The notes under the pieces were generated by a model. The model had not been told where the DNA came from. It was given only the letters and a program-made list of their open reading frames with translations, and did not search any database. A DNA stretch of 64,000 nucleotides, from IMG/VR virus record IMGVR_UViG_3300037453_000505; one strand, given 5' to 3'. The DNA is from a virus (Duplodnaviria; Heunggongvirae; Uroviricota; Caudoviricetes). Position 1 is the stretch's first letter; every line of letters starts with the position of its first letter. The translations under genes and the position numbers were made by a program. This document shows positions 6,541 to 58,165 of the stretch, piece by piece.

Positions 6541-6973
6541 TGGCAAAAAAACTTAAATCATTATCAATTGAAGAAAGAAAAAAATTATTAGATGAAGCAA
6601 TCGATTTCTTCTCAGCTCTTGGAAAAGAAAGAGAAGATATGGATTATCTTTTATTTAAAGCGTCAGCTATGTCGTGAGTAAGAAAAGCTTTTAATTATAT
6701 CTCAGAAGATGTAATGTGAAGAGAGTTAAAAACAGATAAAGATATAGAAGAAGCAACTTATATTATGCTACAGAATATGGACTTTGAACAATTAATAAAA
6801 ATAGAAAACATATCAGATAGTGATGCCTTTTGGTATTATGGTTGAGTTGGTTTAGCTATTGGTATTTTAAAATGAAATGACAAATTAATTAAAGACTTTA
6901 AAGATGTTCAGAAGGCTCAGGAAGATAGCTGAAACTTATCAACAGAGATAAATATTTTAAATCTTAATGAATA
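6541..6973 (+). CDS. Hypothetical protein (about 143 aa).
   Basis: Continuous code-25 ORF beginning MAKKLKSLSIEERKKLLDEAIDFF. Confidence 0.3.
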
Positions 6974-7965: not shown

Positions 7966-8250
7966 TTGGTAGCTGAAGCTTTTCTCCATTGCGATAGGAA
8001 TTGCAAGGAAGAAATATATCATAAAGATAGAGACTTTCATAACTGTAGTGCAGATAATTTATATTTGTCTAAATCACATAGTAATGTTATGAAGCATTAT
8101 ATTCACACCCCAGCATATCAAAAGAAACATACACTATTATTAATGAAACAAATTGAAAAAAGGCAAGAGAAAATTGAGAAAGAAAGAAAAAGATTAGATA
8201 AGGACTTAGATAAAGCAAAGGAATTTTTTAGAACTTTCTCTTGCAATTAA
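7966..8250 (+). CDS. Hypothetical protein (ORF-track fragment).
   Basis: 94-aa ORF on the correct strand for this arm. Confidence 0.3.
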   Translation: MVAEAFLHCDRNCKEEIYHKDRDFHNCSADNLYLSKSHSNVMKHYIHTPAYQKKHTLLLMKQIEKRQEKIEKERKRLDKDLDKAKEFFRTFSCN

Positions 8251-8299: not shown

Positions 8300-8725
8300 A
8301 TGACTAAATTTACAGGACGTTTCGCAAACGATATGGAATGGCGATTTGCCCAGCCAGAACCTAAGGCAGGTAAACAAGTATTCTATGGTAGATTATGTTC
8401 TTGATATACAAAAGAACAATCTATCTTAACTTGAGAAAAATGGCTAGAGGTTATGAGGGCTAAATGATTTTATGGGAAAGAAAAGAAATATGTCCCTAAA
8501 TATTCTCGCCTACAAGAAGATGAATGAGTAGCTGAATACACTTGAATAGATATTACCTATTCAAAAGATGAGGCTAGAGTTTTTAGAAAAGAGTTTGCTA
8601 ATGTGATAGAGAATTTAGAACGAGAGCTTAGGCAAACAGAAGATAAGAAATGTATTAAGGAATTGAACGACAAGATAGAATTGGCAAAAGCTGAATTAGA
8701 TTTATTTAATAAATATAATAAGTAA
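8300..8725 (+). CDS. Hypothetical protein.
   Basis: Continuous code-25 ORF: MTKFTGRFANDMEWRFAQPEPKAGKQVFYGRLCSGYTKEQ... Confidence 0.3.
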
Positions 8726-9300
8726 TGGAAAAATTAATTGAACTAATTAATCAATATGTAAAAGAAAGAAAATGAGATTATATTATAACAGACTATGATG
8801 AAAAATGAACAGGTTTTGATGTAATTCTAGATTGAAAGATAGAATTTATTGGAGAAGAATCTATTCTATGTAAAAGATATGGGTTTATTAAGTGGCTATG
8901 TGAAAGGGGATTGATAGATGAAGATAAAGAAATAGGCTATTATATATTAGAATGATTTGATAAAGAAGATGCTATTCTTATGATGTTAGCCATCAATGAA
9001 GAACCTATTAATTTATTACTTAAGTATATAAAATATACGACAGAAGAAGAAAAATTATATGCGAGAATGCCTGAGTGAGTGATAGGTATCGAAGATTGGA
9101 ATCGATATGATGGTATCGCTTATTATCTAGATGAAGAAACTTGACAGAAATATTCTAGAAATGGGTATCCAATTGCTGATGATGAGATGTGTAAGTGGTG
9201 AAAGATATATAAAGTAGAGACTATTAAAACAGGTGAATGAAATTGGGATTATAAATTTAAGATTTTATCTATTAGAGAAGATAGTCCAACCTCTGCATAA
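8726..9300 (+). CDS. Hypothetical protein.
   Basis: Continuous code-25 ORF: MEKLIELINQYVKERKGDYIITDYDEKGTGFDVILDGKIEFIGEE... Confidence 0.3.
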
Positions 9301-10526: not shown

Positions 10527-10624
10527 TCTAATTGGAACGTCGGACGCCAATTTCTAAAGAGTCGACCACAATTGATTTGTGTGATTGTTTTTTATTGCAT
10601 TAGGGGGCTTCGGCTCCTTGATGT

Positions 10625-10715
10625 GGAGAGATGTCAGAGTGGTTGAATGTGGCGACTTGCTAAGTCGTTAACCGGGTGAGAAACCGGTTCGTAGGTTCGA
10701 ATCCTACTCTCTCCG
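10625..10715 (+). tRNA. tRNA-Ser (anticodon GCU), type II with a long variable arm.
   Basis: Cloverleaf folded by hand: acceptor ggagaga/tctctcc, anticodon loop ttGCTaa, long variable arm aaccgggtgagaaaccggttc, T-arm gtagg-ttcgaat-cctac. Confidence 0.75.
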
Positions 10716-10719
10716 AAGA

Positions 10720-10790
10720 TGGGAACTAGCCTAATGGTAGGGCAACAGGCTTTGAACCTGTGTGTCTAGGTTCGACTCCTAGGTTCCCAA
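10720..10790 (+). tRNA. tRNA-Gln (anticodon UUG).
   Basis: Perfect 7-bp acceptor tgggaac/gttccca, anticodon stem acagg/cctgt with loop ctTTGaa, T-arm ctagg-ttcgact-cctag. Confidence 0.75.
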
Positions 10791-10798
10791 AGTTATAT

Positions 10799-10875
10799 GC
10801 GGGTGTGACGTAATTGGTATAGCGTAGCAGACTTCAGCTCTGCCCGTACGGGTTCAAGTCCCGTCGCCCGCTCCA
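10799..10875 (+). tRNA. tRNA-Gly with anticodon UCA, which reads TGA codons.
   Basis: Acceptor gcgggtg/cgcccgc with discriminator U and an encoded CCA. Anticodon stem gcaga/tctgc with loop ctTCAgc. T-arm acggg-ttcaagt-cccgt. The GCGGG acceptor plus U73 are glycine identity elements. Confidence 0.75.
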
Positions 10876-10876
10876 T

Positions 10877-10953
10877 AGGAGATTAGCTCAGATGGTTAGA
10901 GCACTTGTCTGATATGCAAGGTGTCACTGGTTCGATTCCAGTATCTCCTACCA
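10877..10953 (+). tRNA. tRNA-Ile (anticodon GAU).
   Basis: Acceptor aggagat/atctcct, D-arm gctc-agatggtta-gagc, anticodon loop ctGATat, T-arm actgg-ttcgatt-ccagt, encoded CCA. Confidence 0.75.
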
Positions 10954-10956
10954 TAT

Positions 10957-11028
10957 GTACCAGTAGCTCAATGGTAGAGCAGTTGGCTGTTAACCAATTG
11001 GTTATAGGTTCGAGCCCTATCTGGTGCG
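10957..11028 (+). tRNA. tRNA-Asn (anticodon GUU).
   Basis: Acceptor gtaccag/ctggtgc, D-arm gctc-aatggta-gagc, anticodon loop ctGTTaa, T-arm atagg-ttcgagc-cctat. Confidence 0.75.
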
Positions 11029-11035
11029 GGATATT

Positions 11036-11112
11036 GTGAGTGTAGCTCAATTAGTTAGAGCGCTTGTTTGTGGAACAAGAGGTTGGGAGTGCGATTCTCC
11101 TCACTCACCCCA
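11036..11112 (+). tRNA. tRNA-His (anticodon GUG); no G-1 is encoded in the genome.
   Basis: Perfect acceptor gtgagtg/cactcac with discriminator C and an encoded CCA. Anticodon loop ttGTGga. The base at position -1 is T. Confidence 0.7.
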
Positions 11113-11118
11113 ATTTAT

Positions 11119-11189
11119 GGCGGTATCGTTTTATGCAGGTAAGACGGCCTGGTAATGGCAGAAATGTGGTGCAAGTCCCTTTGCCGCCC
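11119..11189 (+). ncRNA. tRNA-sized structured element of unresolved identity; possibly a degenerate or atypical tRNA.
   Basis: A 7-bp terminal stem ggcggta/tgccgcc encloses 57 nt with internal hairpins (gtttta-tgcagg-taagac; gcc-tggtaat-ggc). I could not fold a canonical D/anticodon/T cloverleaf by hand. It sits between tRNA-His and tRNA-Arg. Confidence 0.3.
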
Positions 11190-11193
11190 CTAT

Positions 11194-11267
11194 GTCCCCA
11201 TAGCATAATTGGATAATGCAACAGCCTTCTAAGCTGTGGATTGGTGGTTCGAGCCCACCTGGGGATA
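11194..11267 (+). tRNA. tRNA-Arg (anticodon UCU).
   Basis: Acceptor gtcccca/tggggat, D-arm gcat-aattggata-atgc, anticodon stem acagc/gctgt with loop ctTCTaa, T-arm ggtgg-ttcgagc-ccacc. Confidence 0.75.
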
Positions 11268-11290
11268 ATTTAGATTTAATTATTATAAAA

Positions 11291-13677: not shown

Positions 13678-13771
13678 AGGAGGAGTTTGAAAAATGTGTA
13701 AAATATGTATCAAAATAACTTGAAAAATGTGTAAAATGTATGCTATTTTATATTGAAAAATGTGGGACAGA

Positions 13772-14100
13772 TGGAGAAACTTATAGAGTTATTGAATGAA
13801 TATATCAATAAAACAATTCTGCCTTATGATAGAGGTGCTGAATGTATTAAATTTGAAAATGGTTTTTTCTATTTCAGAGATTGAGATTGTTTAATAGAAG
13901 ATACCATAATCTCAAACCGTTATTGATTTATCAAGTGGCTAGTAGATAATGATAAGATAAAAATACCTCACGAATTAGATGAATTACCAGCTATGTATTG
14001 ATATGATTATGATAGTGTAGAATGTAAAGCAGATAGATTACTAATGCTACTATCAATATCTAGTTCGCCGATAGATGATTTAATTAGTTATTTAAAATAA
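13772..14100 (+). CDS. Hypothetical protein.
   Basis: Continuous code-25 ORF: MEKLIELLNEYINKTILPYDRGAECIKFENGFFYFRDGDCLIEDTIISNRYGFIKWLVDNDKIKIPHELDELPAMYGYDYDSVECKADRLLMLLSISSSPIDDLISYLK. Confidence 0.35.
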
Positions 14101-16600: not shown

Positions 16601-16674
16601 AGGTACGTGGTGTAATGGTAGCACAGGAGCCTCCAAAACTCTTAGATTAGGTTCAATTCCTAGCGTACTTGCCA
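16601..16674 (+). tRNA. tRNA-Trp (anticodon CCA).
   Basis: Acceptor aggtacg/cgtactt (one G-U pair) with discriminator G and an encoded CCA. D-arm gtgt-aatggta-gcac. Anticodon loop ctCCAaa. T-arm ttagg-ttcaatt-cctag. Confidence 0.65.
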
Positions 16675-37618: not shown

Positions 37619-37790
37619 TAATGGAATAATAATTATTATAAAATTACTTTACTGCAACATCTGAAACTATGGTTCAATTACTTCATCAACTTGAACTACT
37701 ACTAGAACTTGACGTAGACCTTCTTCAAGGGATATATTTTATTCAAGTTACTCATCACCATAGATTTCAGTTATTTGAGCTTTCTCGGCC

Positions 37791-39239
37791 TCTATTGGTT
37801 CTGATAAATGTATCAGATGAATAATAATTTCAAGGTCAATAATTACTTGCATCTACTTGTGTTGTACTTTGATTTGCTATTGTTCAAGTTCGTGGAAATC
37901 AATAGTTATTTCATCGTTGATAATACTTACCACAATTAGCCTCACTTAATGTATCTCCACTATTCCATACTGTAGTAGCTCACAAGTTTTTATCTGCTAT
38001 TGTTACCCAAGTTTGTCAGTCGCTACTTAAACTTATAAGTCAGTCTGTGCTACTCCAAAATATTCATCAGCTTTCTATACTTGTTCAATATAGTTTAGTC
38101 CAAGATGATGTAGGCACAGTTGGGGAATTCTTGAAACAACGGACAGAGAAAACGTAAGAACGGTAGTCGCTATTCTGGGGATTAAGAGCAGTCGAACTGA
38201 AGTATAGGTAGTAGGAGCGATTTGCATCGCTACGAGAAGAAGACCAATAGTACCCGCGGGTACCCTGACCGTCGATATTAGTAGTCAAGGGGTAACGTCT
38301 ACCAGCGAAAGGCAACTTCAACGCTATTCCAAAGTTAGTTCAATCAGAACTTCATCCACCTAAAGCTGTCCATATATCATATACAGCTTGCCACTCTGTA
38401 TTAAGTGGTACGTGAAACCCACTTGGACAAGGTCCCCTCATAGCAGAATAGTCCTTATAAGCGTGGAAAGTTCAAATCGCTCAATGAAGCTTCATATCAG
38501 GAGTTCCCCAAGTTCATTGGGTTACTCATCACCAAAGGTTATCATTTTGAACGGTACTCCAATCATAACTTCAAGTTCCTCTGAATGTATCACCCTCATA
38601 ATAATTTCAAGGTCAATAATTTGAAGCATCTACTCTAAAAGAAGTAGCAGGGATATTTCAACTATGTGCAAATCACAAATTATTACCTCGTTGATAAAAA
38701 TTACCACAGTTAGCATCTGTTAATGTATCTCATTGGTTATATACAGTTGTAGCTCATAGGTTTTTATCTTGTATCGTTATGGGATTTGTTCATACAGTTC
38801 AAGGAGAAATTGTTATAAGTCATAAAGCCTGATTTCGCCAAATTCACGTTTGTCAAATTCAAGGATTATATATTCTAGTCCAACTACTATCTGGTATTAC
38901 AGGCGCATCCTTGAAACAACGGATGGTAAACCCTGTAGAACGGTAGTTGCTCCACAGAGGGTCGATGCTAGACGAATTGAAGCCTAAACTATAGGCATAA
39001 TTAGCATTGTTCGGAGTAGAAGACCAGTAACCACCACGAGACCCCGCGCTGCTAACATTGCCGTCACTGTAGCTACGATATCCAGCCATAGGCATCTTTA
39101 AGTAAGTCCCCATAGTTGTGGCGTTCTGTGCCATTGAAAATGTAGAAGTAAGTATCCCACACAAAGCTGACCATTCACTCTGAAGTGGCACGTGAAACCC
39201 ATCTGGAGCTGGACCTTGTGTATCAAAATGTATTGCCAT
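37791..39239 (-). CDS. FISUMP (Fibrobacter succinogenes major paralogous domain, lectin-like) repeat protein of about 483 aa.
   Basis: ORF-track fragments 38859..39239 and 38085..38321 are joined by TGA=Gly into one frame, with a checked length of 1449 nt. It contains ...PAPDGFHVPLQSEW...GGYWSSTP...GFTIRCFKD, then ...ITIQDKNLGATTVYNQGDTLTDANCGNFYQRGNNLGF...CPSGFHVPLNTEW...GYYWSSS...SVRCFKN, then ...VTIADKNLGATTVWNSGD...CGKYYQRGNNYGFP... These are the FISUMP hallmarks IGNQxWMAENL, YGxLYNW, CPxGWHxPSxxEW, GYYWSST and GFSVRC. Confidence 0.65.
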
Positions 39240-39264
39240 AATTATTTACTTAAGAAATAAATTA

Positions 39265-39900
39265 ATTTCATTGAAGATAGATAATCACCTCATAGAAGTT
39301 ACTAGCCTGTCAAGTCCACCATCTTCAAGCACGAACTCACATATAATATAAGTCTGCATTAACAGAATTCGGAGTAAAACTTGTAGTCCAACTTTGTCAA
39401 GTACCTGTAATTATAGAGAAATTCCAAGTTCATTCTTCTAAAGTTCAAGTTATTGTTACTCTAGTTGTAGAATTATTTTTATTTTCCTTAAATTTTTGAG
39501 TTCAAGTACCACTAACTATCTCTCAAATATAAATCAGTCACGTACTACTTCAGCCATATTCTGTACTACTAGCCGAAAACTCTATTCAATTATTAAAAGA
39601 TTTTATATTACCTCAGCTAATAACCCCATCAGAAGATAGAAAAAAATTCCAACCATCATAAGAGTTACCAGTACAAGCAGCTATAACTTCAAATCAAACT
39701 ATTTTTTTATCGAACTGTTTATAATGTAATCAAAACGTATCTGTAGCATTTACATATCATTGCCAATAAGTAGTAGCATTATTAATACATTGTGTACCGT
39801 TTAATGATAATTCACTATATCTATTTGTACTACCTCAATCTGAAAGCATAACATATTCTTCTGTAGGTATAATGTTCTCTCCTATATAAATATTCTGAAC
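39265..39900 (-). CDS. Hypothetical tail-associated protein.
   Basis: MVYTIKDVQNIYIGENIIPTEEYVMLSDGGSTNRYSELSLNGTQCINNATTYWQGYVNATDTFGLHYKQFDKKIVGFEVIAACTGNSYDGWNFFLSSDGVISGGNIK... (about 212 aa). Confidence 0.35.
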
Positions 39901-39939
39901 ATCTTTAATTGTATAAACCATTTATAATTATAGAATTAT

Positions 39940-40991
39940 CTAAATAGATATGGATTTCGCCAAGGTAAATCCGTAAACGTTTTATTTGTTTTTAAAATTA
40001 CTCAACTTCATCATCAAGAAGTAAGTGGATAAATATATCATTTCTCATCTATAAATCAAACATCTCAATGAATGCTTGTATCATAAGGAGTAGCCTCTTG
40101 AGTAAGTAAAGTCATATTTCAAGATGTATCTATGTAATAATTATTACTTCCATATCAGCTTCAAGTTCCATTATTTGAATTCATTCATCAAGAAACAAAG
40201 TTTCATAGAAAATGAACATACCTATCTCAATATGCAGACCAAGAAGTTGAATTTGAATTTCCTACAAATCATTCATCTCAAGTTCATATCTTCTGAAAAC
40301 GTCACCATCAGTTATATCTAAATGCTCATCTATATAGTTTTCAATCAGGGCCAGCAAAACTATCATTACTACGTCTTGAGTTACTTCATCAAGTAAAATT
40401 AGTTATAGCATTAGTAGATGGATTTACATAAGCAGAATATCAACTTCAAGAAGTATCATTTCCGTTAGTTAAATAAGCACCTAAATGTCAATAATACATA
40501 TATCAACTACCTTGGTCTGTTCAAGATGTTCAGATTTTTGTAAAGGTTATATTGTCTCAATCGACAATACCTTTATAAATATCATATCAACTATTAGCCC
40601 ATACTACTCAAGGTTCTCAAGGTACTACAGATGTATAAGAGAAAGAAGATATTACATTTCATTGAAAGTCTAATATTCCTTTAGGAGTTAATATTCTATT
40701 ATCTCAGAAATATCGAATTCTAAGCCAGTTGTTAGGCATAGTTACAGATAATGTTTTAGATGTACTTGTGAGGTTGTCTAGATTTATGGTTCTCATAGTA
40801 TTAGAATTTTGCTGAAAATCTAATGCTGTTCTATTTCAAATATAAACCCCAGAATAAAATCTAAATCTACTTCAGCTATCTACAAAGTTTATGCTTCAAA
40901 TATCTGTAACTAGGTCCTGGTATTCCTGAAAGTTAGCTTCTGAATAATAATAATTTGGTTCAGGAATGTCTATATAAAGATGTATTGCCAT
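39940..40991 (-). CDS. Hypothetical Gly-rich tail-associated protein (about 350 aa).
   Basis: MAIHLYIDIPEPNYYYSEANFQEYQDLVTDIGSINFVDSGSRFRFYSGVYIGNRTALDFQQNSNTMRTINLDNLTSTSKTLSVTMPNNWLRIRYFGDNRILTPKGILDFQGN... Confidence 0.35.
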
Positions 40992-40998
40992 ATGATTA

Positions 40999-41695
40999 AT
41001 TATTTATATTAAAATCAATATTTTTTCTTTGTTTTATTAAAATATTCTAATGTTTCTTGGGCTGTTCGCTTCTTATTTTCTACTATTACATTATTTATCC
41101 ATCAATTTACTATTCAGCTTCAACCAGGCCTTCATCATATATATAAATCAGAGCTTCACGTAGTTAAACTAACTGACTTACTTCAAATTAAACTTCAATT
41201 AAGATATATCTCTACAGTGCTTCAATCGTAAGTTGCTACCATATTATATCGGTTTCAAGTAGAAAGAGTAGTAGAACTTTCTATGTCGGCTGAGGATGAA
41301 TATCAAGAAAAAGCATAGTAATATCCACCGTTATCTCATAGAGAATAAAAGCTATAATTACTTTCACTTCATCGACATACAGCAGTTCACCAATTACTAC
41401 CATCTATTGAATAATATTTAAATCGAAAACTCAATGTTCTTGGTCAGTTTCAAGTAATTACAGCACTAGATAACCCATATAACCTTCATCAATTAAGCCT
41501 CACACATTTTACCCCTCATTCTGTAACTAGGCTAACCGTTCAGGTAGTAGTTAAAGTGGCTCAACTTATTTTATCTTTGTAATCATCTGTTAACGGCAAA
41601 TATATTTTTGTGTTACTTCAAGGAAACCATCCTCAAGGATAAATCTCATTTTCAACTCAATTCACATATTTAAAGACATTCTTAATTTTAGGCAT
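40999..41695 (-). CDS. LamG / concanavalin-A-like lectin-fold protein; candidate receptor-binding module.
   Basis: MPKIKNVFKYVNGVENEIYPGGWFPGSNTKIYLPLTDDYKDKISGATLTTTGTVSLVTEGGVKCVRLNGGRLYGLSSAVITGNGPRTLSFRFKYYSIDGSNWGTAVCRGSESNYSFYSLGDNGGYYYAFSGYSSSADIESSTTLSTGNRYNMVATYDGSTVEIYLNGSLIGSKSVSLTTGSSDLYIGGRPGG... shows the LamG_3 pattern (SFRFK ... W ... ATYDG-T-x-IYLNG). Confidence 0.5.
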
Positions 41696-41710
41696 AGGGT
41701 TATTTATTTT

Positions 41711-42196
41711 TTAAGTTAAAACTGTTACTGTTTTTCAACTTGAACTTTCATAATAAGTTCAATCAACAGAGGTGTCCCAATAAGTTGTTCGACTATTTCA
41801 ATCTCAGCTACATTCTAATTTTACTCCTGTATAATATCTACTATCTCAATAATAATTCCAAAATGTTATGGTTTCTATTTTATAAATATCTCATAAATCA
41901 ACCTGTAACGTAGAAGCTCCACTAAATCATATATATGTCCCCGTTGGGGATTCACTACCATTTACCCATCTTGAAAGTGCTGTACTATCTTCCCTTGTTC
42001 AACTAATCGCTGTAACGGTTTTATTTAACGCTACATTGGTTCAGTTAACAAAACATTTTATTTGTACATAATGAGTAGAGGCATTTCTACTATTGCTTCA
42101 TAAAGATAGCCTAACATATCTATATCACTTATTTCAAGGATATATTTCTTTTTCTACCCCCCCCCCTCGAATTAATACCCTTTTGATTTTAGGCAT
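41711..42196 (-). CDS. Small discoidin (F5/8 type C)-like protein with an in-frame G10 homopolymer near its 5' end; candidate phase-variable receptor-binding module.
   Basis: MPKIKRVLIRGGGVEKEIYPGNKGYRYVRLSLGSNSRNASTHYVQIKCFVNGTNVALNKTVTAISGTREDSTALSRWVNGSESPTGTYIGFSGASTLQVDLGDIYKIETITFWNYYGDSRYYTGVKLECSGDGNSRTTYWDTSVDGTYYE... Codons 11 to 14 are GGG GGG GGG G, which is plus-strand C10 at 42157..42166. Confidence 0.5.
42157..42166 (-). repeat. Homopolymeric G10 (C10 on the + strand) tract inside the 5' coding region of the discoidin-like gene.
   Basis: Counted directly: tttctaCCCCCCCCCCtcga. It is the only long G/C homopolymer I noticed in this AT-rich window. Confidence 0.85.
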
Positions 42197-42262
42197 AAGA
42201 ATTATTAATTTCAAAATAAATATAGAGCCTACATAGAATTTTCTATATAGGCTCATCTTTTT

Positions 42263-44991
42263 TAATATGTCATATATGCAACGTTCTCATCATAGCTAGT
42301 TAATGCAGCATATTCTGCTTCAGTACCTACCCAGATTTGACTTATAGATGTAGTTGTTCAAGTTGTATTAGATGTGATAGCTCAACCTCATCATCCACCA
42401 CCTCATCATTCAGGTTGTAATTCAAGGTTACCTCATATAGCAAGGAAAACAAACTGGTCAATTCCATCTGCCGTAAGGGTTGTATCTGTTTCATAAGGGT
42501 TAGTCACATTTGTTCAAAGTGTCATTTCATATGCAGTACTTCAATTCTCAACTCTTAATATGTAAGTCTGTCAATCCTTAATTGTAGCTGGAGCATTTAC
42601 TGTAAAGTTCGCACTTGGAGTATATGTTGAAGCTAAGTCAAGAGTAATTGTTGCTCAAGTCTTTGCTTGCCATCAGAAATCACTATAAGACATATCTCAT
42701 CCTCAAGCTTGTGCTACAGCATCGTCTACATATTTCTTAGTAGCTGGACTTCAATCATATTCTGGAGTATAAGGCGAAGAATAATCTTGTCAAGTAGCTA
42801 AGAAATATCAAAGTGCTTGAGTTGATGTACTTACTGCAGAAACTGTTTTAGAACTTCAACTTCAAGTTAACGTAAATACTATACTTATATGATATATTCT
42901 ACTTCTATTACCTGTACCAGTCACATCTCAAGTAGCATAAGCTCTTAAAAATGTAGCTTTACTAGAAGATACCGAATATAATGTATATATATTATTACCA
43001 TAATCCAAAACTGGTGTTTTTCAAGCTTTATACCAATCATAAGCTGCGATAGCATTTGTTAAATCTGATGTGCTAGCTATTGAAAATACCTTAACATTAG
43101 TAGCATCAGCTTTCCCTGATATAGTTGTATCCATTGCAGATATCTTATCATATACAGCATTCTTAGAAGGAGCTTCAGTTGTTACTCAATCCCAGCTAGA
43201 ACCGTAAGCTGTATCTGAAACTTGACTTGGATAACTTATATTTACCTCTGTAATTCCTGTTACTTGACCTAAAGTGTTCGTTGTTATCTGTGGAACTTTT
43301 GTAGCAGAACCTTTTGAAGTATATGCTGTTTGTGCAGTTAAAGCATCTTGCTTTCAACCGATAGTCGTATCCATAGCATTAATCTTATCATACACAGCAT
43401 TCTTTGAAGGGGCGTGAGTTGTATCAGCATCCCATCCGCTTCAATATGCCGCATCAGATATTGCACTTGTTCATAACTTACCATTGAAAGTTTGCCAATC
43501 TGCACTACTTAAATATCAATCATTACTAGATGTAGCAGCTCAAAGTTTAGTTTGAATTGTTGTCTTAGTTTCGTCTCAAGTATTTGTGTTACTTGTGTTA
43601 GAAAGTTTTGTCCTTTCTGCAGAAGTAAGGAATAAATTAGTAGAACCTTGAGTAATAGCATCACTTGTTTGAGTAGATGTATTAAAATAATTAGTTAAAT
43701 CTACAGAAGTTTCTCATATCATTACCCAAGTATTATTTGAGTAGATATATTCTTCGTATTTATCTTGTCCACTTCAAACAGGTCAAAGCAAATATATTAT
43801 TGTTGTTTTAATATCTGTAGTAGGCAATGTAGCTACAACTTTAAATCAAGCAAAGTTTGCTACATAATCAGCTACTTCTTGTTTTGTGTATGTTTCACTT
43901 TTTGTATAATAATTTGTTAAGTCGCTTACAGCCTTAGTAATATATCCAGCATCATTAGTTAATGTAGATACATTATCTAAAGGTTGAACTGCAGAATTAG
44001 CTTTAGTTCTAATAGAACCCAAATCTGATATAGTATCTTGCTTTCAAGCTATCGTTGTATCCATAGCAGATATCTTATCATAGACAGCGTTCTTTGAAGG
44101 AGCTATACCTGTTATTCAATCCCAACTAGCGGCATAAGCATCATCTGAAACTGCTCATTGTGTAGCAGCAGATATATTATCGTCTACATATTTCTTTGTA
44201 GCAGGACTACCTGCATAAACAGGTGTATATGGAGTTGAGTAATCTGTAAGCGTGTCTAGATAACTTCCAGCTCAATTTCAACTTCCATAATTTATTCTAT
44301 TAACAGTTCAATTATTTGTTAGTATAAATATTTTATCAAGACTTAATGAACTAGCATCGCCCATTCCATTATCCAAACTCCTTAATCAAGGGAAGATGAA
44401 AGAAATTCAATTAGTAGAATATGTTCAAGAAAAAATATATAGTCATTTTCTTTCAACTGGGTCAGATGGAGTATAATATACTAATGGGTTCTTACCTGCA
44501 TCATACCAATCATAAATATCTTGTGCTGTAGTTAAATCTGATGTTCAATTTAGATAGAAAGTTTTTGTATCGCTTTCTGGGATGGTAACAGCTCAAGTGT
44601 CTCAGTTTACAGAAGTAACTCAACTATTACTAATAGTCATATTACCACTACCAAACGTTAACCCTATTCAAGTACCTGCCACTGCTTTAGCTGCAGTATT
44701 TCTTACAACTACAGACCAAGTTCAGTTAGAATTTAGTTTATAAACATAAACTTCGTCTAATTGATTAGCTGCGCTATTATGGTCGCTTCTACTTCTATAA
44801 TATTGAAATTCAACTTCAGTAGGAGTTGTGGCATCATTTACATATGCCATAAATGCTAGTCTAGTTTGACTTCACGTAGCAGGATTAGAATTAGAAGAAG
44901 CTCTACAATAAACTACTCCATTCTTATTATAAGCAGTTATGAAATCATTCCAAGTCGAACTACCATAAGAAAGAATAACCATATCATCCTG
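42263..44991 (-). CDS. Large tail-fibre protein C (about 909 aa) with three internal about 35-aa repeats of the motif SWD-x3-APSKNAVYDKI-x-AMDTTI-x-GK-x-DA.
   Basis: N-terminus MVILSYGSSTWNDFITAYNKNGVVYCRASSNSN... Repeats ...AYAASWDGITGIAPSKNAVYDKISAMDTTIAGKQD..., ...AAYGSGWDADTTHAPSKNAVYDKINAMDTTIGGKQDA..., and ...TAYGSSWDGVTTEAPSKNAVYDKISAMDTTISGKADA... The C-terminal module ...PSANFTVNAPATIKDGQTYILRVENGSTAYEMTL... is shared with gene B. The start may lie upstream at a non-ATG codon. Confidence 0.5.
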
Positions 44992-45087
44992 TTTAGCATC
45001 CAAGGCATTTTTCAAGTCTGTTTGGTCTGCTAATGTTCAAGAAATATTTCACCATTCTGCACTTGTTTGTGTATTAGAAATTACATT

Positions 45088-47453
45088 ATTAGCGTCAATA
45101 CTAATTCAAGTACCTGCTGTATAAGTTGTATCTGTAGATGAGATTATAAAATTACATCATTGTCATTGACTTACTCATCATCGAAGATTGTTGTTTGATG
45201 TGCTTGACCAATCCCAATCTGAATCTCCATAGCTCCTTGTTATGAATGTACTTGAACTATAATAATTTCAAGGTCAATAATTTGAAGCATCTACTTGCGT
45301 TGAAGAAGTTGTTATAGTTCAACTATGTGGGAATCAATAATTATTTCCCCGTTGATAGAAGTATCAACTATTAGCATCACTTACCTCATCTCAGCTATTC
45401 CATACTTGTGTCGCTCATAAGTTCTTATCTTGTATTGTATACCAAGCAACTCCGTCACCACTTATTGAAATTAATCCATCTATTGTATTATGGAATATTC
45501 AAGCACCTGCTGCTACTGAACTTCAATCATATAATGTTGTCCAACTATTATCTGGAAGAACAGGAGTGTTTTTAAAACAACGTATAGATGCTGCATTAGA
45601 ACGAGCTATACTTGTAACTCTTGCTGAACCACTACCAGCTGAAATACAGTAAGCATCATAAGAATCTGATGCTGTCGATGCCCAATAATATCAATATCAT
45701 TGACTAGAGACACTACCGTCCGTCATTCAACGCAAACCAGCAAGAGTCATTTTTAAATAGTCTCTCAAAGTTGTATGGTAAGAAGGCAAAGATAATGTAG
45801 TGAATAATATTAAAAGTAACGCATCCCACTCATCTTTAGTAGGTACGTGAAATCCACTAGGTGCGGGTCATTGTGTATCCCATCCACATCTTTCTTCAAT
45901 AGTGATATTATCTCCTGCAGTAAGTTCACCCTGCTTAGCATCTAAAGCATTCTTTAAATCTGTTTGGTCTGCTAATGTACCTATAATATTTCACCATTCT
46001 GCACTTGTCTGTGTATTTGAAATTACATTATTATTTGAAATTGATATTCCAGGTCAGGCTGTATATGTTGTATCTGTAGAGCTAATAGTCTTTCAATCTG
46101 CAGCGATTTGAATATTTGTTCAAGCTATTAATTCATCTTGTTTTCAGCTCCAAGTAGTTCTAAGCCCTGTGCTATCAGCTAAGTCTTTTATATCAAAGTC
46201 ACCTGCTACATAAGTTGTATCTGTAGCAGAGATTGTTTTTCAATCTGCCGCAATTTGAATATTTGTTCAAGCTATTAATGTATCTTGCTTTGTATTGTCG
46301 TGATAAGCATCTGTTATATATCAAGCATCATTAGTTAATTCACTAATATTATCATTAGGCTGAATAGCTGTATCAGCTAAAGTACCTTGTGTTGCTGTAG
46401 CAAATTCACTTACATCGTGAGTAACTATATCTCAATAAGTTGCTATTGTATCAGAAGCTGATTTACCCGCAGAAGCGTTACTTCTAATAGTAGATAAATC
46501 TGATATAGCATCTTGTTTTCAATTAAAGGTTGACCAATCTGTTGAAGTTAGGTAACCATCGTTAGAAGATGAAGCTGCTCAAAGTTTTGTCTTTATTGTA
46601 GCATTAGTTTCATCTCAAGTATTTGTTCAAGTTGTGTTTCATAATTTAGTTCTTTCTGCTGATGTTAGGAATAAGTTTGTTACTCATTCTGTAATGTCAT
46701 CTGCAGTTCAAGTTAGCTGACTTAAGCTATCTCAAGGTTGAATAGATGTAGCTCATAAAGCTGCGCCACTTCTAATGGTTGCTAAGTCAAAAATTGTATC
46801 TTGTTTTGTTGTTAATGCTTGTGTGATTACTCTGTTTTCTACAGGGTTAGTACTTACTGAAGACATAGCCGTATCAATAGCTATAGGTCTTTCTGTATTA
46901 ATAAGTAATAACCATTGAGTTCAATCATACGTATAAAAGTCTCAAACCTTTACAGTTTGTTGCTCAACTACAGTAGAAGCTAATCAAGCAGTATATTCGC
47001 TACCATCTGGACGATAGTTAGTTCATCATTGAGCAGCGACTACACTTACTACATAGTAATCTCAAGCACGATATTGATATGGGTTATCTACAGGATTAGT
47101 CATAGGTAATCAAGTAGTACAGTTCCAGTTAGAAAGATATCTTCATCTAGAACCTGCGTTCTGTATATATTCATACAAAACCTTTCATTGCTTTGCGGAT
47201 AGAGCATCTGTAGTAGAAGTCGAATATAAGTTATCCTCTACTCAAGGTACAGATATATCAACAGCCTTATTCTCGTCTGGAGTTAATGCTTCTCAATTAA
47301 CTTTTACAGTTTCAATTACATTAACCTGAGCTCAAGCTTCTATACTATTGATTTTCTCCATAACACTATCTTCTATGGCGAACTCCTTTTTCTCCTTCTG
47401 TATAGAGGTTTCATCTGCAAAATATTGTTGACGTGCTTTTGGCATCAATCATT
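45088..47453 (-). CDS. Large tail-fibre protein A (about 788 aa) with an N-terminal STSTTDALSAKQGK fibre motif, internal repeats and a C-terminal FISUMP lectin-like domain.
   Basis: N-terminus MPKARQQYFADETSIQKEKKEFAIEDSVMEKINSIEAGAQVNVIETVKVNGEALTPDENKAVDISVPGVEDNLYSTSTTDALSAKQGKVLYEY... The C-terminus contains ...PAPSGFHVP... and ...YTIQDKNLGATQVWNSGDEVSDANSGYFYQRGNNYGFP... An in-frame stop follows at about 45088. Confidence 0.45.
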
Positions 47454-47574
47454 TAGTTAAATATTTAAATAGTATCTATATTTAGATTATATTTTTCTTG
47501 CGTTTATCTATAACAAAATAGCCACACCTATACATTAAGTATAGATGTGACTAAAATGTATTTTAATAATAATC

Positions 47575-47920
47575 ATATATTGTACCTCAAATACTTCATT
47601 GACTTCAAGGAATCCATACTTTTAAGACATCTCACGCTGATGCTGTATATGGTCATAAAAAATATTCATCGTGATAAGTTCAAGAAGTGAAATAATAATT
47701 AAACATCTCTACATCATTTAATGATAGAGCATATCAGTGCATACTTCATACTTTTACAAATCAAAGTCATCTGAATGTATATGTAGTAGGTCAAGAAAAA
47801 TTTGTCGTATGTACAGTTCAATATTCTTTACAAGCTTTTGCGAAAGCTCACATTGAGGCTCACGAAACTGATATATTTTTTATAATGCTAGTATCTACTG
47901 AAATAGCATCACTCACTATT
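47575..47920 (-). CDS. Small Gly/Tyr-rich protein between tail-fibre genes B and A; possible fibre chaperone or assembly factor.
   Basis: MGAFAKACKEYGTVHTTNFSGPTTYTFRGLGFVKVGSMHGYALSLNDVEMFNYYFTSGTYHDEYFLGPYTASAGDVLKVWIPGSQGSIGGTIYDYY. Coordinates approximate. Confidence 0.25.
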
Positions 47921-47997
47921 CAAGTTATCTCTCACCAAAGATTATTATTATTTGAACTATCCCAACCAGATGGGCTGGTTGTTCTAATTATAAATGT

Positions 47998-50564
47998 GCT
48001 ATTATCATAATAATTTCAAGGTCAATAACTAGAAGCATCTACTTGTGTAGACGAAGTAGTTACAGTTCAAGTTCGTGGAAATCAATAGTTATTTCATCGC
48101 TGATAATATTTACCACAATTAGCTTCACTTAATGTATTTCAATTATTATATACCGTAGTAGCTCATAAGTTTTTATCGGCAATAGTTATCCAATTATTAC
48201 CATCACTAGATATAGAAATAATTCATAATGATGGGCTATGATATATTCAAGAATTTCAGCTGCCCTGATATAATACTGTCCAATTACTATTTGGACTTAT
48301 TGATATATCTTTAAATGGACGAATTGAATTTGCATCTGAACGCCTACTGAATTGAGTAGGGTTTACAATATCCCCGAATTCAATATTATAAGCAAACTCT
48401 TCACCAGCGTGTGTGGATGACCAATAATATCCAACGTGTTCTTGATTAAACTCGTGAGAATCTTCATACCAACGACTTCCTGCAAACGGTATTTTTAAAT
48501 AAGTTTTAAAATCGCTTCATCAATTAGAATTCCAAGCTCATAAACTTACTCACATATCATATAAAGTTACCCACTCATCTTTAGAGGGTATATGGAATCC
48601 ATCATCACAAGGTCATTGCATAGCTGAATAATCGTCTCATATTATTATTCACTTTCAAGCATTATAACTTGTTGCTTCTGGGTCTCCTGGTTGTAACTCT
48701 AAATTTCAGCCCACGGCTAGAAATACAAACTGGTCAATACCGTTTTCAGTTAATGTTAAATCTTCGTTATAAGGATTAGTTATATTTGTTCAGAGTGTCA
48801 TTGTATAAACTATTGCTCAATTTGTCACCCTTAATATATATCTCTGTCAATCCTTTATAGAAGATGGAGCATTGATAGTAAAATTCGCAGACGGAGTTAT
48901 TGAAGTAGATAAATCTAGAGTAACTGTAGCTCAAGATTTATTCTGGAAATTGAAATCATTATATTTCATATCTCCATCTCAAACAATTTCCCAACTATCT
49001 CAATCCCATACCTTTAATATATTATTAGTTGTATCATACCAAAGCTGTCAAGTAACTGGATTAGAAGGAGCTGTAGTTCAAGATGTTATAGCGTTTTTAA
49101 CTTTATCATCTACATATTTCTTTGTCGTAGGACTTCAGTCATAAGCTGGAGTATATGTAGGTCAATAGGCACTATAGTTTACATCTGTACTAAGGAATTT
49201 TACTAGCTTTTGATTTTCATATGTGATACTTGTAACTACATCACTAGAGTAGTTTAAATCTAATCTAGTATTATGTATTTGTGTATCTCAATCTGCACTC
49301 ATTACAGAATATCCTGTATAAGCTTCATAGAATGATAATTTATCTCAATTAAGATGTGAATCTGAAGTGAGATGAAAGTTTGTTGTCTCATCTGTTCAGA
49401 ATACAATTATAGGATTATTTCAAGCTTTCCAATAATCATACGCCGCCTGTGCCTGAGCTAAGTCTGTAGCATCAGCCTGTGAAGCAGACTTTATGTAGAA
49501 AGCTTTTACATTTGTATAAGTATCCACAGGAGTCCAACTTGTTCAATTATATATTTTTAATATATGATTAGTTGTATCGTACCACAATTGTCATTCTGTT
49601 GGATTTTGTGGAGCTGCGCTTCAAGAAGAAATAGTATCTCATATACTATCATCAACATATTGTTTATTAGCTATAACTGTAGTATCTACAGAAAATTCAC
49701 CAGAACTAAGATTTAATCAATATCAAGCTGTATATGTAGTATCTGTATCTATAATATCCCAACTTGTTCAGTTATATACTTTTAATAAATCATTAGTTGT
49801 ATCATACCAAAGCATTCATTCTGTCGCAGGAGAAGGGGCTGTAGGTCAAACATATTTACTTCATTCTATTGCGTCATTAATAGCTGAAGCAACTTCTCCT
49901 GCAGTTTGATACCCTATGTTATTTGTTAATTCTGTGATATTATCTCAAGGTTGAATAGATGTAGCTCATAAAGCTGCACCTGCCCTAATAGTAGATAAAT
50001 CAAGAATATTATCTTGTTTTGTAGTAAGAGCTAAATAAACAGCTCTATTCTCTACGGCGTTCCTAGATGTAGGAGATAATCCATCGTCTATAATTATTTC
50101 TTTTACTTTATTAACCTGTAGTAACCATTGATTTCAATCATAGATATAGAAATCATTTACATTAACTTCCTCTGTCTCAACAGTCTGACTTGCTACTCAA
50201 GGAGTGTATACACTTCAATGAGGGCGATAATTTAACTGTCAAGTAGGTGCAACTGTAGCAACTATATAATAGTCTCAAGTTGCATATGTATGAGGAGAGT
50301 CTACTGGGTCTGTTACTGGCAATCAAGTAGTACAATCCCAAGAAGATAAATATTTATTTAATCAAGTTATTGCATTTATCTGGTCTTGTAATGCCTTACC
50401 CATATTAGCAGATAAGGCATCAGTTGTAGACGTTGAATTAATGTTGTCAATAACCCCAGGAATATTGTTAATTTTTTCTTCAATTTCCTGGGTTAATTTA
50501 TTGACACGCTTTTCCTTATCTGTATACACTCAATCTCAATTATATATTAATCTTGCGTCTGCCA
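47998..50564 (-). CDS. Large tail-fibre protein B (about 855 aa); paralogue of A (N-terminus) and C (C-terminal module), ending in a FISUMP-like region.
   Basis: N-terminus MADARLIYNWDWVYTDKEKRVNKLTQEIEEKINNIPGVIDNINSTSTTDALSANMGKALQDQINAIT... The internal ...PSANFTINAPSSIKDGQIYILRVTNGAIVYTMTL... matches gene C. The FISUMP C-half (PDGFH..., GYW...) and module lie at about 48005..48640. The stop, TTA on the + strand, is at 47998..48000. Confidence 0.45.
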
Positions 50565-50593
50565 TATTGTGTATTTAGATTAAGGAATAAAAA

Positions 50594-56538: not shown

Positions 56539-56722
56539 TATTACACATAATATTAGTAATAACGCTATAAATATATAATATATTTATATTACTGATAAAT
56601 AAGAGAAATACAAGAGATGCTTAATTAATTAAAAGAAAAGGGAAGGCTAATTAAAGCCCTCCCATATTTGAAAGACTAGATTAGTCTAAAAATTCTACAT
56701 CATCTAATCCACATACTTCACA

Positions 56723-58165
56723 AGAGTTAAGTACGCATTTTCCAAAGTTCTTAATGAATCTATATGCTCCTTTATCAACTCACATCCATACTACAGCAAA
56801 TTTAACATCTCCAACAATCTTATTACATTCTCCGAGTTGAGCTCCGATATTATAAGGATTGTCTGGTAAGTATCTAAGCATAGGAGTTCCGTTCTTAATG
56901 CTTCCATTAATAGGTGCATTAGAAACAACTTTACCGTTAGTATCAACTACAGTATATTTTGGCTGGAATACTCCAACTTTATCTTCAGGGATTGTCAACA
57001 TTACAGAGAAGTCGAAGTCGTTAAGAATTGGAAGATATTTGAAAGTAATAGTTGTTCCAGCATATCTAATTCTTGGTAATCCAACATCGATATCATATTG
57101 ACTTCCATCTAAGAATCCAACATTTCCATAGTCTTGGAAATATCCTTGCATCATATGAAGTCCTTCCATAGCTTTCTTGTTCATAGCAACTGTTACGTTG
57201 TTTTTGTACATTCCAGAAATCATAGCTTTATTGATAACGATATCTAAGAAAGCTTGGATTTGATGTCTAGCGTTTGTACATTCAGAAGCTGATTCATCGC
57301 AGCATCCTTCAAGGTCGAAAGCAATCTTTAATCCATTTTCTTGTGCTTTAGCAAGAGCAGGGAAAAGTCCCATAGTCTCCCATTTGTATGTAGAGATTTG
57401 CATATTTCTATCATAGAAAGCTGCGTGTAAGAATTCTTTAATAGCTTCTACATCTCCTTTTCTGAACATAGCATCTACGATAGCTTGGATTCCTCCAGAG
57501 ATAAGGTAGTCTTTGTTCAAGTCACACCAATTGAATTCGTGAGAAATAGAGATAGTTCTGAAGAATGCAGAATAGTAATCCATTCCTCCTAATTCTACTG
57601 GATTGAAGATTTCAGTTGCACAACTTCTATCTCTTAAGTAAGCTCCTCTTCTAACTTTATCTCCTGCTTGTAATTGAACAGAAGGAGCTTCTTTCAAAGT
57701 AATAACATTTGTAGCAGAATTAACTGATTCAATGTATAATCCATTAACTGGATTTCCTCCTTGTCTCATAACTAAGATAGTTGAATCTCTATTAACTCCT
57801 CCTAATTTTTCAAGAGAAGCAACTTCAATTTCAGCTCCATTTACAGAAACGATTTCAGTCTCTTCACCACAAATTCTTGGTTCATACCAACCTACTTTAC
57901 AATCTCCATCTAACAAAGTCAATTCACTAGAAGCAGCTAAATTGTCTTTGAATTTATAAGTTACATATACTTCTCCTGTTGTAGGGTCTTTTTGAGGTAC
58001 TACATCGAAGAAAATAGTCTCATATCTTAGGAACTCTTCATATTGTCCCCAAGTTTCGAGAACTCTACCATTAGCATACAATGGGTTCAAAATGTCTTGG
58101 AAGCGAACTGATTTTTCAGATAAACCAGTAGCATCGCAAGGATTACAGCTTTGTGTGCTTGCCAT
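56723..58165 (-). CDS. Putative major capsid protein (about 480 aa), a highly expressed structural protein.
   Basis: This is the only ORF over 400 aa in the standard-code track (56780..58165). It has no internal TGA in 461 codons and extends 19 codons past a single TGA near the C-terminus. It lies directly downstream of the scaffold-like gene and portal candidate. It is preceded by AAAGGTG. Function is assigned by position, size and codon usage only. Confidence 0.45.

Follow-up and report, generated by a model that had tools for sequence, protein, structure and literature searches.

A short N-terminal head on unrelated lectin-type proteins of a code-25 phage points to exchangeable accessory adhesins

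Two adjacent genes, here called gA and gB, encode small proteins that begin with nearly the same 21 residues (the head) and continue into bodies of unrelated sequence. They lie in a 64,000-nucleotide stretch of DNA (hereafter the window) from a virus of the class Caudoviricetes, IMG/VR record IMGVR_UViG_3300037453_000505, which sits within an 84.9-kilobase (kb) metagenomic contig, belongs to a probably podovirus-like phage and reads the codon TGA as glycine. The same head recurs in related phages in front of other bodies. The whole is best explained, with chances that we put slightly above even, if gA and gB are small single-domain lectin-type accessory adhesins in which the head serves for docking and the bodies are exchangeable. 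The features on which the argument draws are collected in Table 1; retrieved homologous proteins are numbered P00xx, and they and their contigs provide the loci L001 to L021.

The heads of gA and gB are identical at 14 of 21 residues, and the head segment alone gives a BLASTP E value of 3e-6. When the 21-residue N-termini of all 81 genes of the window are compared pairwise, these two rank first of 3240 pairs, with the runner-up at 10 of 21, and without their heads gA and gB have no detectable similarity. A preliminary description of this DNA, made from the letters alone, had claimed both the near-identity of the N-termini and the unrelatedness of the C-terminal domains; both claims hold, provided that TGA is read as glycine. 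Its coordinates were right for gA, and its placement of gB at 40999..41695 was ten bases off. At the DNA level, 42 of 63 nucleotides of the heads are identical (67%), and synonymous codons differ at 7 of the 14 conserved residues, the mark of selection on the peptide. In related contigs the head follows the consensus MPKIKxV-x5-GxExxIY(P), with K3, I/V4, K5, G13, E15 and Y19 invariant or nearly so.

Two explanations in which the peptide would have no function of its own can be weighed on these figures. Chance, or the remnant of a recent tandem duplication, might be suspected from a match of only 21 residues in a genome where MPK is a common start, and it deserves almost no credence: chance similarity is rejected by the first rank among all pairs and because the head recurs with five types of body, in some 20 independent contigs and in 16 protein clusters, and a recent duplication or gene conversion is excluded by the synonymous divergence of the two heads. 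This divergence also speaks against an RNA or DNA signal. In an explanation of that kind, the first ~60 nucleotides would be conserved as a translation-initiation region or as a patch of recombination homology; many genes of this phage do begin with MP(K/R), and recombination junctions lie in or beside the head (see below), yet the low DNA identity of the window's heads, the different codons at half of their conserved residues, and a conservation that reaches residue 20, well past known effects of start-codon context, make it improbable.

Table 1. Positions in the window of gA, gB and the other features discussed
Feature	Position	Strand	Description
gA	41711..42196	-	161 amino acids (aa); head residues 1-21, discoidin/CBM32-like body about 25-160; 12 TGA (Gly) codons
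gB	41009..41695	-	228 aa; head residues 1-21, LamG/ConA-like body; 25 TGA (Gly) codons
Head of gA	42134..42196	-	MPKIKRVLIRGGGVEKEIYPG, 21 codons
Head of gB	41633..41695	-	MPKIKNVFKYVNGVENEIYPG, 21 codons
gA body	41714..42124	-	'RYVRL...E' strand first
G10 homopolymer	42157..42166	-	C10 on the plus strand; gA codons 11-14, GGG GGG GGG Gta
Terminator-like hairpin	42225..42254	-	13-bp stem, T-rich tail, z = -4.9; between fibre stop and gA start
1727-aa tail fibre	42262..47445	-	Directly upstream of gA; Phage_fiber_rpt 8.9e-9, Phage_tail_C 7.2e-7 (Pfam); tip motif IWVGTEAEYAALTSYDENVAYMTY
1000-aa second tail fibre	47563..50565	-	N-terminal part and other modules in common with the 1727-aa fibre
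351-aa Gly-rich protein	39936..40991	-	Conserved downstream flank of the cassette slot; begins MAIH
219-aa protein	39262..39921	-	Starts MVYTIKDVQNIYIGENIIP; possible member of a second head class
531-aa protein	37644..39239	-	Begins MAIH; two Fib_succ_major copies (aa 1-126, 263-384)
Phage tRNA(UCA)	10799..10875	+	tRNA-Gly identity elements; decodes the TGA codons on which gA and gB depend
tRNA genes	10624..11268 and 16601..16674	+	Array of seven, including tRNA(UCA), and a separate tRNA-Trp(CCA)
Major-capsid-like gene	56681..58165	-	1 TGA in 494 codons
Paralogous pair	8725..9300 and 13771..14100	+	MEKLIEL(I/L)N(Q/E)Y, 10/21

Under the bacterial code (table 11), gA and gB contain no intact open reading frame (ORF), only short pieces, and the peptide MPKIKRVLIRGGGVEKEIYP stops at a TGA. 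With TGA as a sense codon, ORFs of at least 150 aa cover 55.7 kb of the window, as against 4.7 kb under table 11. TGA is glycine (code 25) in the window, and this assignment follows from codon shares, from alignments, from a tRNA and from the domain content of gB. In 28 late genes, TGA accounts for 5.6% of codons overall and GGN alone for 3.5%, which together gives a share of 9.1% overall (4-14% per gene), while TGG amounts to 0-3%. TGA sites in one homologue face GGN-encoded glycine in others (for example, NwTNVALNK vs NGTNVALNK), and gB translated with glycine at TGA matches Pfam Laminin_G_3 at E=5.6e-14. The phage also supplies its own decoder, a tRNA(UCA) with the acceptor stem GCGGG.../...CCCGC; its G1:C72, C2:G71, G3:C70 and discriminator U73 make up the bacterial tRNA-Gly identity set. 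It is one of the array of seven tRNA genes, and the window has a separate tRNA-Trp(CCA) of normal type. Public gene calls of this lineage use code 4 and place tryptophan at every TGA. Code-25 phages of Absconditabacteria and Gracilibacteria are on record (PMC10746230), and from its code the host of the phage is probably a member of one of these groups.

The very highly expressed major-capsid-like gene avoids the recoded codon, TGA making up 0.2% of its codons and GGN 8.3%. Both Fib_succ_major copies of the 531-aa protein are without TGA and the remainder of that protein is TGA-rich, a mosaic usage that could mean that the Fib_succ domain was recently acquired from a standard-code source.

The bodies were assigned to lectin-type families with unequal security, so that of the two domain calls in the preliminary description the LamG call for gB stands and the discoidin call for gA stays under the Pfam threshold. 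The body of gB belongs to the Laminin_G_3 (PF13385) / ConA-like lectin superfamily: residues 78-214 score 53 bits against a gathering threshold of 27.6, and the family profile of gB matches the solved LamG-type structure 4qvs at 3.9e-7 (PDB). The body of gA reaches 25 bits with F5_F8_type_C (PF00754; E=2.3e-5), below the gathering threshold of 28.2, and its residues 26-159 match an internal module of the large phage 'tail protein' phrog_21973 at 1.7e-15 (PHROG). A weak PDB match to the CBM32 of AlyQ aligns segments in permuted order, and together with the Pfam coverage it suggests that the discoidin/CBM32-like fold of gA appears to be circularly permuted. The 'RYVRL...E' strand comes first in the gA body, and canonical F5/8-C domains end with it. 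The start of gA was placed at 42196 and not at the in-frame ATG at 42256, because the latter lies inside the terminator-like hairpin and relatives have stop codons there.

The preliminary description had proposed to look for further MPKIK-headed genes, and such genes were found. A 30-column head profile was searched against 1.84 billion (1.84e9) representative proteins at E<=1e-3 and returned 17 hits, 16 of them genuine clusters. All 16 comprise proteins of 92-249 aa with the head at, or at most 17 residues from, the N-terminus, and all are Trp-rich, which identifies them as products of TGA-recoded genomes. A scan with a DNA pattern for the head found none in IMG/VR, none in GTDB genomes and one contig in JGI metagenomes, and the region gave no BLASTN match to 50,697 GenBank phage records. 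Five kinds of body carry the head: the discoidin-like body of gA (window, L007/8 and L013-15), the LamG body of gB (window, L001/2, L009/10 and L016-20), a 189-aa type (L007/8 and L013-15), a 209-aa type (L012, L020, P0023 and P0025) and a 249-aa type (L021; P0028 and P0030). In body-only BLASTP among the first four types, every cross-type pair had E>0.8, and the 249-aa body, compared with all ORFs of the window and L001-L012, gave no significant match to the other four; the sole likeness it showed, over a short segment, was to modules of fibres and of other large proteins of tail type.

The bodies also occur without this head. The homologues retrieved were P0001-4 for gB and P0005-P0009 for gA, and in P0006-9 the discoidin body bears other heads or none; its distant homologues are 34-43% identical, and some start at the domain itself. 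Residues 494-710 of a 711-aa protein in L012, which contains Fib_succ, are homologous to the LamG body (E=1.6e-23), and 342-aa proteins in L003-5 have a C-terminal half homologous to the 209-aa body (E=1e-23). The modules therefore exist either inside larger fibre-type proteins or free-standing behind a head, and the N-terminus is, as had been supposed, a separable module common to unrelated lectin-type bodies. This distribution bears on the role of the head. It could be a self-association or folding element, such as a trimerising or capping beta-hairpin for otherwise monomeric lectin domains, rather than a virion tag; most receptor-binding proteins form oligomers, the low-confidence model of the head is a beta-hairpin, and the Pfam and PHROG scans gave no partner domain. 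Against this, the same bodies occur with quite different heads or with none, so the head is not required for their fold, and one head class on different bodies within a genome fits a common external partner better. We regard self-association as an unlikely explanation of the head, although the two roles are not mutually exclusive.

The genomic setting supports the other element of the earlier proposal, a cassette system: the slot that follows the fibre is filled by different combinations of headed genes, and recombination junctions fall within the head or just behind it. In this slot, which the 351-aa gene closes on the downstream side, the window has gA and gB, L001 and L017-19 have gB, and L015 has gA and the 189-aa type; the contigs of L013/14 end inside the downstream gene. 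In L007/8, where gA and the 189-aa type are present, a Gly-rich 237-aa gene lies downstream in place of the 351-aa gene. The 351-aa protein has no Pfam or PHROG match; like the 531-aa protein it begins MAIH, which in the latter is the start of the Fib_succ domain. Altogether, the window and five other lineages have headed genes directly after the fibre. The gB DNA of the window and that of L001 are about 50-70% identical before, and 90-100% after, about codons 12-14, while the heads of the L009 gB and the L012 209-aa protein are identical at 58 of 63 nucleotides and the genes diverge directly after residue 23. These jumps in identity place exchange junctions in or right behind the head, and together with the slot contents and the headless bodies they show modular cassette exchange. 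Two other accounts of the arrangement were rejected. Heads are not specific to a slot position, one type to each, since L017-19 have the second type in the first slot, and L001 did not arise by a recent deletion between heads, since its head differs from gA heads at many synonymous sites.

The 1727-aa tail fibre, encoded directly upstream of the slot, is a candidate docking partner of the heads. In all head-bearing loci with at least 8 kb of context there is a fibre ending in the motif IW[VA]GTE..YA.L..Y.E..AY[MF]T[YF], and four loci of another lineage are without it. In the 1727-aa fibre the tip motif is preceded by a nine-glycine linker. The two fibres of the window are mosaics: they are 49% identical over their first 214-245 residues and also have in common a Fib_succ_major-containing block and a block of roughly 230-280 aa, in different order. 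The terminator-like hairpin between fibre and gA has conserved counterparts ahead of the first headed gene of L001 and L007, and expression of the accessory genes may be weaker than that of the fibre or separate from it.

One head type contains a homopolymer, and the G tract in gA is clearly non-random and conserved. It is the sole run of G or C of at least nine bases in the window, where shuffled sequences give an expectation of 0.01, in a genome in which GGG is rare as a glycine codon (45/1001); the nine-glycine linker of the 1727-aa fibre is encoded without a homopolymer, as TGA TGA GGT GGT GGA TGA TGA GGT TGA. The tract is kept in seven contigs (the window, L007, L008, L013-15 and L020) and on two body types: five other gA contigs have G9, and in L020 a LamG-bodied protein has G10 at this place in its head. 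The codons neighbouring it differ synonymously among contigs, and the difference between G9 and G10 is a base substitution at the edge of the tract and not an insertion or deletion. The run is in frame and longer than eight bases, and a slip of one base truncates the protein: a -1 slip leads to TAG at once, and a +1 slip to TAA eight codons later. Switching of gA by slippage is thus plausible from the reading frames. The preliminary description went further and let the tract regulate which tip is made; this part fails, because gB has its own start codon and the tract can affect only gA, and all copies are in frame. The most it could control is the presence of the discoidin-type module. Further G10 runs were seen in relatives. 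Those of L020 lie at 6550-6559 and 8031-8040, one on the LamG-body head and the other 29 nucleotides upstream of a LamG-like gene, and that of L016 (756-765) lies in codons 2-5 of a 92-aa ORF.

The mechanism that we propose can be put as follows. Each protein would consist of a ~21-residue head, M-P-K-I-K-x-V-x5-G-x-E-x-x-I-Y-P, followed by an exchangeable body of carbohydrate-binding type. The head, probably a beta-hairpin with the invariant Gly13 at its turn and then a Pro/Gly break, would anchor every module, non-covalently, at one common site of the tail-fibre apparatus, and by swapping bodies behind a constant tag the phage would change or add adhesin specificities. In one head type the turn of the hairpin is encoded by the G9-G10 tract, which would be prone to slippage; a slip, with a stop at codon 14 or 22, would switch one module off in part of the progeny and yield a mixed population. 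Docking is preferred as the role of the head because fibres lie upstream, because the carbohydrate-binding-type bodies are homologous to tail modules, and because one head occurs on different bodies within a genome; by analogy with the branched receptor-binding-protein systems of K1-5, SP6 and KP32, we infer that the head is a docking peptide.

Several observations weigh against this proposal. In L009, L010, L012 and L016 the headed genes adjoin holin or lysin genes and not the fibre, and in the window the terminator-like hairpin separates gA from the fibre gene. The co-occurrence of head and fibre tip is confounded by shared ancestry. Neither a T4gp10-like branching domain nor another recognised docking domain was found in the late proteins with Pfam and PHROG (the fibres with Pfam only), scans that found only Phage_fiber_rpt, Phage_tail_C and Fib_succ_major. 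Single-chain structure predictions, made from the Trp-for-Gly database versions, have a pLDDT (predicted local distance difference test) of 56 for a gA homologue and 29 for a gB homologue, with the head below 50 and modelled as a low-confidence beta-hairpin (residues 7-11 and 14-18); Foldseek with the gA-homologue model (pLDDT 56) gave chance-level matches only. The head profile likewise gave only chance matches to PDB sequences, with no solved structure resembling the head. As for slippage, no length-variant or frameshifted alleles, and thus no frame-changing length polymorphism, occur among the seven assemblies.

Some of these points would fit a different role, in which gA and gB are not virion proteins but soluble or host-directed late lectins that bind, for example, glycans of the host or of a partner cell at lysis, the head being a targeting, regulatory or chaperone-recognition peptide. 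Headed genes beside a holin, a lysin or a 132-aa gene in the four loci just named, and the hairpin between fibre and gA, are what such a role would lead one to expect. The head, however, lacks the hydrophobic character of a signal peptide, tail and structural proteins contain modules homologous to the bodies, and the position directly after the fibre in the window and five other lineages also argues against it. A non-virion role accordingly has a small probability, much like that of self-association, and virion adhesins with a docking head remain the explanation that we favour.

The proposed arrangement has counterparts among characterised phages. The secondary receptor-binding proteins of branched systems have short conserved N-terminal docking peptides, of 7 and 11 residues in K1-5/K1E/SP6 and longer in the KP32/KP34/Menlow groups (PMC6872550), and a conserved peptide of this kind is experimentally required for incorporation and permits swapping of the cargo (PMC13352976). 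As in the E. coli phages K1-5/K1E, Salmonella phage SP6 and the Klebsiella phages KP32/KP34, the adhesin genes of the window lie side by side after tail genes. The secondary proteins of the branched systems begin with a short peptide, from 7 to a few tens of residues long, that stays constant in a phage group although the remainder is exchanged horizontally, as the head does here. In the branched systems the peptide differs between phage groups, and a swap of the body changes host range. Their cargo is a large trimeric beta-helix tailspike or depolymerase, whereas here it is a single lectin-type domain of 140-230 aa and no trimeric beta-helical cargo is present; their acceptor is a T4gp10-like branching domain, which was not detected in the scans above. 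The heads differ further in having no sequence similarity to the peptides of those proteins, in belonging to code-25 genomes and in the poly-G of one head type.

Two other systems resemble gA and gB in their logic. The T2/S16-type gp38 is reportedly a small adhesin encoded directly downstream of the fibre gene, which is said to attach non-covalently to the fibre tip by a conserved N-terminal part and to carry receptor specificity in a variable C-terminal part. Its attachment domain is reportedly much longer, its C-terminus a polyglycine-rich sandwich and not a LamG or discoidin domain, and there is one adhesin per fibre; gA and gB have no Pfam or PHROG match to gp38, and only gene position and logic are alike. 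BppA of lactococcal phage Tuc2009 is said to be an accessory carbohydrate-binding baseplate protein, a small module likewise added non-covalently beside the main receptor-binding protein; it belongs to a siphovirus baseplate and has no sequence relation to gA and gB. The N-termini of lactococcal receptor-binding proteins (..IKKVYRG) may resemble the IKNIYLG-type heads seen in relatives.

For the homopolymer, the closest parallel is with the hypermutable poly-G tracts in receptor-binding genes of Campylobacter phages (Sorensen et al. 2021, Cell Rep 35:109214, cited in PMC10877375). The common points are an in-frame G9-G10 tract in an adhesin-type gene of a low-GC phage, truncation upon frameshift, and further tracts at module genes in relatives; the tract described here differs in that no length variation was seen and in that it lies in a putative docking peptide and not in the receptor-binding part. 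The principle of a short docking tag is therefore already known from other phages, and what would be new here is the monomer-sized lectin cargo, its presence in code-25 phages and the conserved homopolymer in the tag.

The MPKIK head is not the only N-terminus that recurs on different proteins in these genomes. Two proteins of L010 have MVLVQKPIKNIYLG in common (14/14) and are unrelated in their remainder. The 219-aa protein of the window starts with a peptide that weakly resembles this MVLVQKPIKNIYLG of L009/L010 and, on that likeness, may belong to a second head class. MLII(E/N)(S/N)NDE..Y begins both a discoidin protein and a 210-aa protein in L006. Another such start is common to LamG-like and Gly-rich proteins and reads MSPIYI in L009/L010 but MAIYM in L020, which shows that this head varies together within a genome. 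The sites of these other heads are L009 10709-12903, L010 1892-4047, L020 6588-7971 and L006 10001-11647. A further pair in the window, that with MEKLIEL(I/L)N(Q/E)Y (Table 1), was rejected as a case of this kind; the two are ordinary paralogues, 35% identical over ~100 residues (E=2e-9).

Taken at its widest, the pattern would mean that code-25 phages of CPR (candidate phyla radiation) bacteria use plug-and-play adhesins: several classes of very short tag (MPKIK..IYP, M(S)PIYI/MAIYM and MVLVQKPIKNIYLG), each with its own site on the fibre apparatus, would carry exchangeable single-domain lectins, and the modules would vary stochastically from virion to virion through hypermutable poly-G tracts, located within a tag, at a 5' end or upstream of a gene. 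We offer this generalisation tentatively and think it doubtful as a whole.

Almost nothing is known of host recognition by phages of Absconditabacteria and Gracilibacteria, uncultured bacteria with small cells, whose own way of life may be attachment to other bacteria. A catalogue of lectin modules that have in common a constant tag of 21 residues would offer a handle on receptor recognition in these phages by way of the glycan binding of the bodies, and the tag would flag adhesin genes of recoded metagenomic phages that escape standard annotation. As a location for a phase-variation switch, the conserved poly-G within the tag would be new. If the tag docks as proposed, the 'conserved peptide' design principle of Klebsiella phage engineering would extend to distant phages and to monomer-sized cargo.

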